64,000 bases of DNA. Origin: Mustelus asterias (taxonomy: Eukaryota). Position 1 is the first letter of the stretch. Every line of letters starts with the position of its first letter. A program made the translations under genes and the position numbers. Below, piece after piece: positions 8,530 through 64,000 of the stretch. The notes below the pieces were generated by a model. It saw nothing but the letters and a program-made list of their open reading frames with translations. It was not told where the DNA came from and ran no database searches. The stretch covers positions 124,001 to 188,000 of the forward strand of contig NW_027590554.1 in NCBI RefSeq assembly GCF_964213995.1. Direction: 5' to 3'.

Positions 8530-10210
8530 AGACGATAAGCTATAACAGTGGCATTAGACCAGTCGACCCATGGAGTCTGTTCCGCCATTCAATCGTGTCT
8601 GCTAAGTTTCCCATCCCCAAAAATTATAAGGGATAGGATTTATAGTTATTTGGAGAGTAATGAATTGATAGGTGATAGTCAGCATGGTTTTGTGGCAGGT
8701 AGGTCGTGCCTTACTAACCTTATTGAGTTTTTTGAGAAAGTGACCAAGGAGGTGGATGGGGGCAAGGCAGTGGACGTGGTATATATGGATTTTAGTAAGG
8801 CGTTTGATAAGGTTCACCATGGTAGGCTTCTGCAGAAAATGCAGATGTATGGGATTGGGGGTGATCTAGGAAATTGGATCAGGAATTGGCTAGCGGATAG
8901 GAAACAGAGGGTGGTGGTTGATAGTAAATATTCATCATGGAGTGCGGTTACAAGTGGTGTACCTCAAGGATCTGTTTTGGGGCCACTGCTGTTTGTAATA
9001 TTTATTAATGATCTGGATGAGGGTATAGTTGGGTGGATTAGCAAATTTGCTGATGACACCAAAGTCGGTGGTGTGGTAGACAGTGAGGAAGGGTGTCGTA
9101 GTTTGCAGGAAGACTTAGACAGGTTGCAAAGTTGGGCCGAGAGGTGGCGGATGGAGTTTAATGCGGAGAAGTGTGAGGTAATTCACTTTGGTAGGAATAA
9201 CAGATGTGTTGAGTATAGGGCTAACGGGAGGACTTTGAATAGTGTGGAGGAGCAGAGGGATCTAGGTGTATGTGTGCATAGATCCCTGAAAGTTGGGAAT
9301 CAAGTAGATAAGGTTGTTAAGAAGGCATATGGTGTCTTGGCGTTTATTGGTAGGGGGATTGAATTTAGGAGTCGTAGCGTTATGTTGCAACTGTACACAA
9401 CTCTGGTGCGGCCGCACTTGGAGTACTGTGTGCAGTTCTGGTCCCCACATTACAGGAAGGATGTGGAGGCTTTGGAGAGGGTGCAGAGGAGGTTTACCAG
9501 GATGTTGCCTGGTATGGAGGGGAGATCCTATGAGGAGAGGCTGAGGGATTTGGGATTGTTTTCGCTGGAAAGGCGGCGGCTAAGAGGGGATCTTATTGAA
9601 ACATATAAGATGATTAGAGGTTTAGATAGGGTGGATAGTGATAGCCTTTTTCCTCTGATGGAGAAATCCAGCACGAGGGGGCATGGCTTTAAATTGAGGG
9701 GGGGTAGTTATAGAACCGATGTCAGGGGTAGGTTCTTTACCCAGAGGGTGGTGAGGGATTGGAATGCCCTGCCAGCATCAGTAGTAAATGCGCCTAGTTT
9801 GGGGGCGTTTAAGAGATCCGTAGATAGGTTCATGGACGAAAAGAAATTGGTTTAGGTTGGAGGGTCACAGTTTTTTTTTTTTAACTGGTCGGTGCAACAT
9901 CGTGGGCCGAAGGGCCTGTTCTGCGCTGTAATGTTCTATGTTCTATGTTCTATGTTCTATTCTCCCGCCTTTTTCCGGAAACTTTGATCCCCTTACAAAT
10001 CAAAAACATATCTACTCAATGACCTGACCTCCAGACCCTTCTGTGGCAATGAATTCCATCATTTCACCACCCACTGGCTGAAGAAATTCCTCCTCATCTC
10101 TGATTTAAACGTTCGTCCATTTACTCTGAGGCTGTTCCCTTGGATCCTCGTCTCTTTTACTTACATGGAAACACCTTCCCCAACCCGGCACTTTTTCCAA
10201 AGTCTTGGTA
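8530..10210 (-). mobile_element. Old CR1-type 3' end (8530-8618 and 9961-10210) split by a younger CR1 insertion
   Basis: ccgccattcaatc...catcccc and tctcccgcc...caatgacctgacctcc...gaagaaattcctcctcatctc read as one continuous element across the insert. Confidence 0.65.
8619..9960 (+). mobile_element. Young 5'-truncated CR1 LINE (RT domain, open frame to 9855)
   Basis: QHGF..GRSCLTNL, YMDFSKAFDKV, GVPQGSVLGP and KFADDTK motifs; (tgttcta)n tail; nearly identical to 37225-38560. Confidence 0.97.
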
Positions 10211-58760: not shown

Positions 58761-59780
58761 AATTACGGCTTGCTCGTTTTTAAAAGAAAAGATCTAATTG
58801 ATATATGAAACCTTTGGCTTTCATTTTCTTTTCAGACTTATTTTCACCAGAAACAAGTTTCTCCTTGAAATTGTCATGTTTAACTTGAACAAAATTGACT
58901 TCTTAGCCAGTGGAAACACGAATGCTGTTAACTGGAACAAGAAATTGGCAGTGAGATTAAATAGTCCCATAAGCTGCTGATGTGTAACGTTCAATTTCCA
59001 AGCCTCACCAACCTCATCATTGCAACTCATGTGATACGTATGAGGCCACACAAGGCAGATATCCGACACTGAAAGCAATTGATGCAGATCCTTTGTTCAA
59101 TATTTTCTTGTTGCATCTCTTTCTGTTTCTGTTGTTGCCTCTCCTTCAGCTCCCTCTGACCGTCCAGCACCTAGAATCAATTAACTTCTTGATGCAGACA
59201 CAAAACATTGGTGAGACCGAGCTTTACCTGGAATGGAGGGAGGATCGGGATTGTAGGACACAAGGTTGTGTGAAGAGAGGGAGTTCACAGATGGCAGGGG
59301 ATAGAGGCACCAGGATCTTAGCTTCCTAATTCTCCATGACACAGATTACAGGAATTTGCACAGTGCAAATTATCCGCAGTCACGCTCTCCTTTCAGTCTT
59401 TTGTACGGAGTTACTTTTTGTCACCTTCGAAGCATTGCTGCAGTTGCTCAGGGTATTGCCAATACCTCATTTGGAATACTGCGTCCAGTTTTGGGGTTTT
59501 GCATTTAAGACAGGATGTACTTCTAATGGAGACGGTACAACAAAACTTCACTAGGTTATTCTCTGAGATGAAGGGCTTGTCCTATTATGAGAGGTTGGGT
59601 AAATTGGGCTCAATTTCTCTGGAGTTCAGCAGAATGATATACTATCTCATTGATACCTACACAAGAATGAATGGATTAAATCGGGTGCATTCTGAGATAT
59701 CAAAGAATTTAAAATATGGGACACAGTCTCAGGATAAGGGACGAGGACTTTAGGACATTTAGTACTGAGATGAGGAGAAT

Positions 59781-60093
59781 TTGTTTTGTTTATATATCCA
59801 ATTCAATCCACTCAAAGTCCAATTCAAAGCCTCAGCAAGTGAGACATTCCCGATCCAAGCTGACGACAGATGGTTCCCACGTCCTGTCTTGGGCTTGATC
59901 TACATGGTCCAAGCTAATTGGAGCAGGCATTGCACCTCCTCCAAGGCTTGATCTCATTTGCATTTTAGCCAAAAGGCCGATATGCCGCTTTAAAAAATTG
60001 CTTATAATGAAGCTACATTGTAACCTTATGACTTCAACCAAGTAGAGCATGTCGACACTACACTTGATCTTAGCCAAAAGGCCGATAAGCGAT
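59781..60093 (-). mobile_element. U2 snRNA-headed SINE-like element, unit A
   Basis: Reverse complement starts ATCGCTTATCGGCCTTTTGGCTAAGATCAAGTGTAGTGTC (U2 nt 1-40), then a non-U2 body and an A-rich tail; GAGGAGAAT on both sides. Confidence 0.8.
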
Positions 60094-60102
60094 GAGGAGA
60101 AT

Positions 60103-60637
60103 TTTTTAAAATGTTTTTTTATTCCAATTCAAATGTTTACGCAGAGAGTGGTTGGGGTGTGGAATGGACTGCCTGCAGTGATAGTGAGTCAGACACTTTA
60201 GAAACATTCAAGCGGTTATTGGATAGGCACATGGAGCACACCAGGATGATAGGGAGTGGGATAGCTTGATCTTGGTTTCAGATAAAGCTCGGCACAACAT
60301 CGTGGGCCGAAGGGCCTGTTCTGTGCTGTACTGTTCTATGTTCTATGTTCTAAATCAAGTCCAATTCAGAGTCACAACAAATTGAGACATTCCCGATCCA
60401 AGCTGACAAGACAGGGCTCTCCCCTCCCGTCTTGGGCCTGAACTACATGATCCAAGCTGATTGGAGGAGGCATAGCTCCTCCTCCAAGGCTTGATCTCAT
60501 TTGTATCTTAGCCAAATGTCCGAGATGCCGCTTTTAAAAATTGCTTATAATTAAGCTATAATGTAACCTTATGACTTCCACCAAGTACAGCATGTCGATA
60601 CTAACACTTGATCTTAGCCAAAAGGCCGAGAAGCGAT
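60103..60637 (-). mobile_element. U2 snRNA-headed SINE-like element, unit B (interrupted by a CR1 3' end at ~60135-60351)
   Basis: Reverse complement starts ATCGCTTCTCGGCCTTTTGGCTAAGATCAAGTGTTAGTATC; same body as unit A. Confidence 0.8.
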
Positions 60638-60646
60638 GAAGAGAAT

Positions 60647-60972
60647 TTTAAAAAACATACTTTTCCAGTTCAATCAAATGAAGTCCAATTCAGAATGTCA
60701 ACAATTTGAGGCATTCCCGATCCAAGCTGACAAGACAGGGTCTGCAACCCCTGTCTTGGGCCTGATCTACATGAGCCAAGCTGATTGGAGTGGGCGCAGG
60801 TCTTCCTCCTCCAAAGCTTGATCTCATGTGCATCTTAGCCAAAATTCCGGGATGCCGCTTTAAAAAAATGCTTCATATGAAAATGAAGCTTAAATGTGAC
60901 CTAACGACCTCAACCAAGTGCAGCATCCTATCCATACTACACTTGATCTTAGCCAAAAGGCCGAGAAGCGAT
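60647..60972 (-). mobile_element. U2 snRNA-headed SINE-like element, unit C
   Basis: 60972-60934 is a perfect U2 nt 1-39: ATCGCTTCTCGGCCTTTTGGCTAAGATCAAGTGTAGTAT. Confidence 0.8.
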
Positions 60973-61682
60973 GAGGAGAAATTACTCCACTCAAAATGTT
61001 GGGAATCGTTGGCATTTTCTCTTCCAGAAAGTTCGGGATGCTCCATCATTGAACACATTTTATTGTGGGATAGACAGATTTTTGATCTCTCCGGCAATGA
61101 AGGAGAGCGGGTGGGAAAATAGAACTTAAACAAATGTTCAGCCATGAATTAATGTTTCAACACTGAATCTTATGTTTAATAGCACAATTGAAACATGTAT
61201 ATACTTAATTTAATCTGTATGAAATGAATATTTATTAACTAAGTTACGTTGGCAACACTGGGAGACATTTTTATGGGCGCCCACGGATCCATTACCTACC
61301 CGCAAATGTTTGCGCATGAATGCTGCTGGGGAGAGAAGAGTATAATTTCCGTTCCTGGATTGTTTCGAACTACCAATCACTCCTTTAATAACCGAGCTGC
61401 GACAGATATCTTAAATTAGGGCGTTAATGATTTCTCTACAGATCCGACCAAATTCTATTGCTGCAAAAGTTGATCCAGAACTACAGGATGGCCACACCGT
61501 TTACAGTTCCATACAAGTCCCTTTGGTTATTTTGTTCCCACATGGTTGCTGTGTGTGGTGGGTATTCCCTTTCTCCGAGGAGCATGCAGTAAAATGAATC
61601 CATGTCTCTTACCACAGAGAGAAATTAAACGGTAAAGAATGGAATTGACCAGCAGAAGCCCAAGGCTACATTACCTTCAACT

Positions 61683-62024: not shown

Positions 62025-64000
62025 TAGAAAATAGAACATAGAACATAGAACATTACAGCGCAGTACAGGCCCTTCGGCCCTCGATGTTGCGCCGACCAGT
62101 GGTACCAATATAAAGCCCCTCTAATCTACACTATTCCAATATCATCCATATGTTTATCCAATAACCACTTGAACGCTCTCAACGTTGACGAATCCAACAT
62201 TGCTGCAGGCAGGGCATTCCACGCCCTTACTACTCTCTGAGTAAAGAACCTACCTCGAACATCTGTCCTATATCTCTCACCCCTCACTTTAAAGCTATGT
62301 CCCCTCGTGCTAGCCAACACCATCCGAGGAAAAAGGTTCTCACTATGCACCCTATTTAATCCTCTGATCATCTTGTATGCCTCTATTAAGTCACCTCTTA
62401 ACCTTCTTCTCTCTAACGAAAACAACCTCAAGCCCCTCAGCCTTACTTCATACGATTTTCCCACCATGCCAAGCAACATCCCTGGTAAATCTCCTCTGCA
62501 CCCTTTCCAACGCTTCCACATCTTTCCTATAATTCGGCGATCAGAACTGTACGCAATACTCCAAATGCGGCCGCACCAGAGTTTTGTACAGTTGCAGCAT
62601 GACCTCCTGGCTCCGAAACTCAATCCCTCTACCAATAAAAGCTAACACACCGTACGCCTTCTTAACAACCCTATCAACCTGGGTGCCAACTTTCAGGGAT
62701 CTATGCACATGGACACCCAGATCCCTCTGTTCATCCACACTACCAAGTATCTTACCACTAGCCCAGTACTCTGTATTCCTGTTACTCCTTCCAAAGTGAA
62801 TCACCTCACACTTTTCCGCATTAAACTCCATTTGCCACCTCTCAACCCAGCTCTGCAGCTTATCTATGTCCCTCTGTAACCTGCCACTTCCCTCCGCACT
62901 GTCTACAACTCCACCGACTTTAGTGTCATCCGCAAATTTACTAATCCATCCTTCCATGCCCTCATCCAAGTCATTAATAAAAATGACAAACAGCAGTGGC
63001 CCCAAAACAGATCCTTGCGGTACACCACCAGTAACTGAACTCCAGGATGAATATTTCCCATCAACCACCACCCTTTGTTTTCTTACAGCTAGCCAATTCC
63101 TGATCCAAACCACTAAATCACCCTCAATCCCATGTGTCCGTACTTTCTGCAAAAACTTACCATGGGGAAACTTATCAAACGCTTTGCTGAAATCCATATA
63201 CACCACATCAACCGCTTTACCCTCATCCACCTCTTTGATCACCTTCTCAAAGAACTCAATAAGGTTTGTGAGGCACGACCTACCCTTCACAAAACCGTGC
63301 TGACTATCCCTAATCAAATTATTCCTTTCTAGGTGATTATAAATCCTATCTCTTATAATCCTTTCCAATACTTTGCCCACAACAGAAGTAAGGCTCACCG
63401 GTCTATAATTACCAGGGTTGTCCCTATTCCCCTCCTTGAACAAGGGGACAACATTTGCTATCCTCCAGTCTTCTGGCACTGTTCCTGTAGACAATGACGA
63501 CACAAAGATCAAAGCCAAAGGCTCTGCAATCTCCTCTCTAACCTCCCAGAGAATCCTAGGAGAAATGCCATCCGGCCCAGGGGACTTATCTATTTTTACC
63601 CTTTCCAGAATTGCTAACACCTCCTCCTTATGAACATCAATCCCATCCAGTCCAACAGCCTGCATCTCAGTACTCCCCTCAACAACACTGTCCCTCTCCA
63701 GTGTGAATACCGACGAGAAATATTCATTTAGTGCCTCTCCTATCTCTTCAGACTCCACGCACAACTTCCCCCTCCTGTCCTTGACTGGCCCTAATCTTAC
63801 CCTAGTCATTCTTTTACTCCTGACATACCGATAGAAAGCTTTAGGGTTTTCCTTGATCCTACCTGCGAAAGATGTCTCATGTCCCCTCCTGGCTCTTCTT
63901 AACTCTTTCTTTCGGTCCTTCCTGGCTAACTTGTAACTCTCAAGCGCCCTAACTGAGCCTTCACGTCTCATCTTAACATAAGTCTCCTTCTTCCTCTTCA
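62025..64000 (-). mobile_element. CR1 LINE ORF2 (RT), with a stop and a frameshift near the C-terminus; runs off the window
   Basis: ORFs 62541-63971 and 62126-62635; (tgttcta)n tail. Confidence 0.96.

Follow-up and report, generated by a model that had tools for sequence, protein, structure and literature searches.

Repeated insertion of a U2-headed SINE at one site of a CR1 remnant in Mustelus asterias

The analyzed stretch of Mustelus asterias DNA (64,000 nucleotides, hereafter the window) contains three related minus-strand units of a short interspersed element (SINE), named A, B, and C, within a remnant of a CR1 LINE. We conclude that these units are very probably separate insertions of three successive subfamilies, likely made by a Keno-type LINE of the Tx1 clade, each at the 5' copy of the target-site duplication (TSD) of its predecessor. 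The independence of the units, their order, the family-wide re-use of insertion sites with a 5' polarity, the lack of a preference for CR1, and the TSDs and U2 site that the SINE has in common with the LINE are each directly supported by the comparisons below.

Layout of the locus and relationships of the three units

The locus spans positions 59,440-61,075 of the window. The host sequence starts with the end of ORF2 and the beginning of the 3' UTR of CR1 (59440..59768, plus strand), which has 18 homologous CR1 copies in the DNA compared (929 kb) and a translated PHLEYCVQFW stretch that we take to be CR1 ORF2; the second part of the 3' UTR (60983..61075, plus strand) lies beyond the SINE units and is continuous with the left part in the empty paralogues. 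A motif of ~13 bp flanks the units in four plus-strand copies that start at 59769, 60091, 60635 (one mismatch), and 60970. The first copy is located behind the tail of unit A (59769..59781), the second between A and B (60091..60103), where it overlaps the U2 head of A by 3 nt, the third, with one substitution, between B and C (60635..60647), and the fourth ahead of the head of C (60970..60982), where the original upstream flank is retained and the putative re-used nick site would be located. At no more than one mismatch, the motif has six matches in the 64-kb window, four of them inside the 1.2-kb locus, with a shuffle mean of 1.6 per 64 kb.

The three units are ~320 bp long and share 78-87% mutual identity; each begins with a U2 5' end and terminates in an A-rich tail. 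Unit A (59782..60093, minus strand), which represents the oldest of the three subfamilies and was the first to be inserted, is 92.9% identical to the A-subfamily majority and A-type at 19 of 24 diagnostic sites. Unit B (60104..60637, minus strand) is assigned by the tree, by 92.5% identity to the B majority, and by 15 of 24 B-type diagnostic sites, whereas unit C (60648..60972, minus strand), from the latest of the three subfamilies, is 92.6% identical to the C majority and matches the Rfam U2 model with 48.7 bits. Unit C is predicted to be strongly folded (z = -5.6; 0 of 100 shuffles as good). In representative SINE units, the head corresponds to the initial 39-40 nt of the U2 gene present in this genome, and a second U2-like segment is carried inside the units. 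A functional U2 snRNA gene was rejected as the identity of the units, as only the first ~39 nt match and the true genes are located on contig C24.

The tail of B is interrupted by a younger CR1 3' fragment of 218 bp (60135..60352, plus strand) that matches another CR1 end at 62032-62245; among the four near-identical copies of the locus, this fragment is present in those on C522 and C111 and absent from those on C87 and C166. The layout of three units and four motifs with CR1 resuming afterwards, which was proposed in the initial annotation, is borne out by the motif positions, the unit comparison, and the Rfam U2 match on C. The visible differences between the units, to which the annotation also pointed, do reside in subfamily-specific bodies and tails, but the difference of B is inflated by the nested CR1 fragment, which it had overlooked. 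The window segment as a whole belongs to a multi-copy segmental duplication family found on C71, C75, C108, C138, and small contigs, and six tRNA-like Rfam matches are present at 31112-56147.

On the question of whether A, B, and C are each other's closest relatives, a tree of 105 units (those under 230 nt were dropped) places them in three different subfamilies, and a tree with the three in a single clade is rejected by the AU test (p = 0.00056). Between each unit and the majority of its own subfamily, the identity amounts to 92-93%, vs. 83-91% for the other majorities. Genome searches with each unit retrieved dispersed copies that are closer to the query than its neighbors in the window; some of these queries carried 1-3 TSD bases at their ends, a slight bias in favor of the CR1 motif as a target. 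Thirty loci share the window flank: four carry C-B-A, eight carry one unit, and 18 distant ones have no unit at the site. The single-unit paralogues, six complete and two with the 3' part lost, show 80-87% flank identity and the same TSD, while in the empty paralogues L154-L156 the motif is present once. The single unit has an A-type tail and is A-type at 17 of 24 diagnostic sites; in the truncated unit of L146, six sites are A-type and nine are B-type. The private changes common to A and the single paralogous unit number three, which is within the range for unrelated copies and no excess, so their orthology is based on position, tail, and overall divergence. It is possible that the paralogue lineage has lost B and C. 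The divergence from the respective subfamily majority is about the same for all three units, so the intervals between the insertions may have been short.

Thus, the three subfamilies, together with paralogues that are empty, hold A alone, or hold C-B-A, indicate independent insertions at one re-used site, as the initial annotation had supposed, and not a tandem duplication. The latter reading, in which a single insertion was followed by tandem duplication or by unequal crossing-over via the TSDs, could draw on the segmental duplication of the region into four near-identical copies; however, it is confronted with the rejected clade, with the subfamily-specific bodies and tails, and with other arrays in which LINE and SINE alternate, and its probability is next to nil. 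The annotation had further held that random flanks at other copies, combined with a single clade of A, B, and C, would indicate tandem duplication: the flanks of other copies are indeed unrelated, yet the three units are not one clade.

The SINE family and its target sites

The genome (3.68 Gb) contains at least 6,224 exact tails of this SINE family. Clustering of 231 units, with those under 150 nt dropped, resulted in nine clusters, and a subfamily ladder was built from the consensus distances; these numbers of tails and clusters indicate amplification from master copies and not one-off U2 chimeras. The site counts (77, 220, 224, and 161 sites) and the spacing and re-use statistics exclude the window locus with its duplicates and paralogues, as well as the U2 arrays of C24. 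The flank logo that a sequence-specific element would lead one to expect did not emerge: neither 77 nor 220 sites yield a strong logo, but only the weak consensus Y|A(1-3)T, with A at -1 in 91% and T at +1 in 66% of the 77 sites. The TSDs are mostly 8-23 bp, and the match to U2 positions 40-50 at the SINE sites shows a small excess over background (mean 2.98 vs. 2.81).

The initial annotation proposed a conserved CR1 3' UTR motif as the target of the SINE, which would renew this motif with its own U2 5' end. As a family trait, CR1 targeting is refuted. The motif copies are a target-site duplication, and the 3 nt that they share with the U2 start are microhomology as seen at many other copies. 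The junction of CR1 motif and head at no more than one mismatch has 14 genome matches, of which 11 are in the four locus copies, two in older paralogues, and one elsewhere with other flanks; for comparison, the genome holds 701 exact 37-nt heads, true U2 genes included. At no more than two mismatches, the motif is found at 0 of 220 other insertion sites, a non-redundant set in which no U2 sequence follows the site, and among 224 other insertion-site flanks none groups with that of the window locus. Moreover, within 929 kb of DNA, the homologous CR1 site is uninterrupted in all 18 cases, 15 of which have the motif. One of these sites, in a separate CR1 copy that serves as a control (10088..10098, minus strand), is the unoccupied similar motif correctly noted in the annotation near 10083-10098. 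What speaks for targeting is the three insertions at the window motif, other repeats that were hit repeatedly at one position (L014, L308, L317), and the resemblance of the motif to the U2 nt-38 target, with which it shares 8 of 12 bases, a value reached by 3 of 161 other sites (top 2%); this resemblance may be why this particular CR1 copy was hit. According to PMC4494074, an element is regarded as sequence-specific when the target occurs in more than 20% of flanks. A CR1-targeting element, with 0 of 220 flanks and one independent locus genome-wide, falls below that share and was rejected; we consider this reading extremely improbable. Two other repeats were hit repeatedly at the same base (L014, L308, L317, and also L059; L026, L294), which suggests local hot sites outside CR1.

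Apart from the U2 head and, in later subfamilies, a short motif in the tail, BLAST comparisons revealed no homology between the SINE body and the partner LINE; an origin of the body as a deleted LINE 5' UTR was ruled out, as the match stops at the U2 head. An exact octamer motif near nt 130 of the body (59954-59961 in A) is found in all nine subfamily majorities and in 186 of 207 long units. It is located ~185 nt from the unit end; in a stack, the following head would hence begin roughly 200 nt downstream of it, which is the spacing of the distal element of snRNA genes. A predicted stem that contains the octamer may be the cause of its conservation. In addition, we identified shorter or older U2-headed elements (L008:2306-2521, L007:806-833, L037:2119-2149, and L081:2302-2435). 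One shorter U2-headed element starts at the second U2 segment, which suggests that the long form could have arisen by a U2 module added in front, resembling the front addition of a U2 module in SINEU-1.

Re-use of old insertion sites

The re-use rates were obtained from samples of 90 head loci, 51 LINE 3' ends, and the first 100 tails listed. Among the first 100 tails listed on contig C1, nine same-strand SINE tail pairs are 299-346 bp apart, with 0.005 expected. In these samples, re-use of SINE sites is about a thousandfold above chance and affects roughly 15%, or about one copy in six or seven. Nine of 51 independent LINE 3' ends, selected by the LINE 3' UTR alone, continue through a TSD into a SINE head, for which the chance expectation is about 1e-4. 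Every array has its own local TSD. Tandem Alu insertions with repeated use of one target site were reportedly described by El-Sawy and Deininger in 2005; the shark SINE is alike in this respect, with a weak consensus and roughly one copy in six or seven involved. The same likeness holds for the tandem Utopia insertions reported in PMC4640811.

The re-use is polar. Among 38 adjacent pairs (the window C|B pair was counted once), the 5' unit has a later subfamily rank in 29, an earlier one in a single pair (L289), and a tied rank in eight, and the C-B-A order in the window agrees with this later-subfamily-5' rule; thereby, arrays order the subfamilies in time. In 25 of 39 pairs, the greater divergence is that of the 3' unit (p = 0.043), and the two members belong to the same cluster in only 4 of 39; the median divergence along the subfamily ladder, from samples that are top matches, is non-monotonic, with a low value for cluster 2. 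In L179 and L182, the TSD of the 5' LINE runs 7-8 nt into the SINE head, thus the 5' LINE is the later insertion. One could envisage that each array was made all at once, with serial priming or template jumping from a nick that had stayed unligated, which would fit the identical left TSD borders, the TSDs that reach into the head of the older copy by a few bases, the three TSD-less dimers (L059, L077, and L263, where poly(A) is joined directly to the head), and the similar divergence of A, B, and C. However, the ladder order in 29 of 30 rank-different pairs, the scarcity of pairs that share a cluster, and the paralogues that hold the 3' unit A alone make such an origin very improbable.

We propose instead that arrays grow by successive insertions. 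The LINE endonuclease would prefer nt 37/38 of the U2 gene but would mostly cut weak Y|A(1-3)T sites anywhere in this genome, and unit A would have been inserted at such a weak site in the CR1 3' UTR that happens to resemble the U2 target. The 5' TSD copy would retain the original nick context, that is, the upstream flank and the TSD, and could be recut for B and then for C, giving TSD-C-TSD-B-TSD-A-TSD. As this copy keeps both sides of the first nick, the scheme would explain the polarity. The retained nick context would then be the main cause of re-use, with a probable contribution of attraction by the U2 heads. Likeness to U2 is slightly higher at re-used sites than at sites used once (4.0 vs. 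3.4 of 12; n = 24 vs. 137; one-sided p = 0.046, one of three tests); given the weak consensus and this marginal difference, the retained sequence alone is not an obvious explanation of the thousandfold rate.

Alternatively, the main attractor might be not the retained nick context but the U2 head of the earlier copy, if a protein recognizes the U2 DNA or if the U2-headed RNA pairs with it. Insertions inside heads near U2 nt 11, 28/29, and 37/38 (L091, L251, L118, L227, L121, L305) and antisense SINE insertions inside older heads near U2 nt 48, which produced inverted head structures (L049, L091, L278), do not re-use the old nick, and seamless head-on-head junctions are observed as well; the internal hits make some additional attraction by the U2 heads themselves probable. 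However, headless junctions of 5'-truncated LINE copies are also re-used (L300/L312, L302, L114), and the nine head vs. one headless re-used junctions in the LINE sample, although small numbers, match the ratio of 6,224 SINE to 734 LINE tails (8.5:1), so the U2 head is not required for re-use. We consider head attraction as the main cause rather unlikely and retain the nick context in this role.

The partner LINE, U2 genes, and SINE transcription

The partner LINE encodes an apurinic-type endonuclease, a reverse transcriptase, a zf-RVT domain, and a CCHC ORF1, and its protein relatives are labeled Tx1. In L222, the endonuclease domain is in an open frame of 288 aa. The closest named protein matches of the LINE are from Heterodontus (55-67%, where the best matches from teleosts and lancelets reach about 35-42%), and no named Keno sequence is among the 120 matches listed. 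Keno is a U2-specific element of the Tx1 clade with the 3' junction 37 nt from the U2 5' end, as given in PMC4640811 and PMC6136364. The partner LINE is similar in its apurinic-type endonuclease and reverse transcriptase and in a 3' end at U2 nt 37/38; in contrast to the U2 specificity described for Keno there, however, only about 22 of at least 734 LINE tails in the genome are at the U2 nt-38 site, the others being dispersed, and the LINE has a SINE passenger. For this proportion of ends at U2, we regard its specificity as relaxed and withhold the strict Keno label.

The true U2 genes are organized into arrays on contig C24. At 44.81-44.94 Mb (L222), about 15 homogenized units of 8,035 bp form a tandem array, each with one intact U2 gene and a full-length Tx1 LINE, whose 5' end is derived from U2 and whose 3' end is joined to U2 38-191. 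A second U2 array consists of 1,833-bp units without the LINE. Among 28 junctions of poly(A) and U2 nt 38, 15 are in the 8-kb array (one inspected, plus L222), seven belong to the LINE, five to the SINE (one of these calls rests on 40 nt of tail), and one to neither. LINE and SINE also occur on shared TSDs in many arrays. The shared TSDs and the five SINE copies at U2 nt 38 indicate that the SINE uses the natural site of the LINE; SINEU was assigned to Tx1-Mar on the same kind of evidence, shared targets (PMC4494074). A Keno-type Tx1 LINE is thus the likely motor of the SINE, which would be mobilized by the LINE proteins.

SINEU-1, -2, and -3 are U1/U2-headed SINEs described from crocodilians only and mobilized by Tx1, and tandem SINEU-3 copies that sandwich a TSD were read as sequential insertions (Kojima, 2015, PMC4494074). 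As far as described there, SINEU and the shark SINE are alike in the U2-derived head, repeated U2 modules, a length below 500 bp, a poly(A) tail, TSDs, a Tx1 partner deduced from shared targets, and tandems that sandwich a TSD. They differ in that SINEU targets Mariner (13-90% of copies) with Tx1-Mar as the partner, whereas among the host repeats of the shark SINE none is dominant, its partner is found at the very U2 site, some of its copies lie within U2 genes, and its 5' polarity was measured. By this likeness of description, and not of sequence to SINEU or Mariner-N4_AMi, the shark SINE works like SINEU. No U2-headed SINE or Keno partner in cartilaginous fishes was found in the literature outside Repbase and subscription papers, which may hold it. 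SINEU and TSD-sandwiched tandems are already in print (PMC4494074), and the partner LINE, the measured polarity, and candidate source loci are added here.

A variant U2 (85-90% identical to the main gene) is contained in a ~449-bp repeat on C21 at 28.05-28.08 Mb (L321-L324, L343), several units of which are occupied by the LINE or the SINE at nt 38. In L318, L320, and L323, the SINE stands in place of the front of the variant U2 gene, behind the ~250-bp spacer that also precedes the intact variant gene. This upstream DNA would supply a promoter and would explain why many copies start exactly at U2 +1; no octamer-like motif was found at the expected place in the upstream DNA of true or variant U2, so the promoter reading is one from position. 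The transcription of promoter-less U2-headed SINEs is left open in PMC4494074, and the SINE copies seamlessly behind U2 upstream DNA are named loci at which transcription of SINEU-type elements can be tested. SINE copies that replace the U2 gene 5' end and inherit its upstream DNA would be the source of transcription.

Tentatively, and with somewhat more doubt than belief, we suggest that a retrotransposon directed at U2 has for the most part left the U2 genes and, together with its U2-headed SINE, prefers its own past insertion points, where new copies are stacked in front, the SINE being supplied by copies that stand in place of a U2 gene's front and use its promoter. If true, the question of how SINEs with an snRNA head come to be transcribed would be answered, and every array could be read as a dated record of how the subfamilies succeeded one another. 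Polar re-use at roughly 15% with a weak consensus presents a measurable puzzle of target choice by the Tx1 endonuclease.

Pieces of the ~449-bp variant U2 repeat on C1, C7, and C14 adjoin LINE or SINE ends (L318-L320), resembling 3' transductions. Finally, a 1,349-aa open gag-pol-like frame (L139:751-4800) belongs to an LTR-type element that interrupts a copy of the Tx1 LINE.
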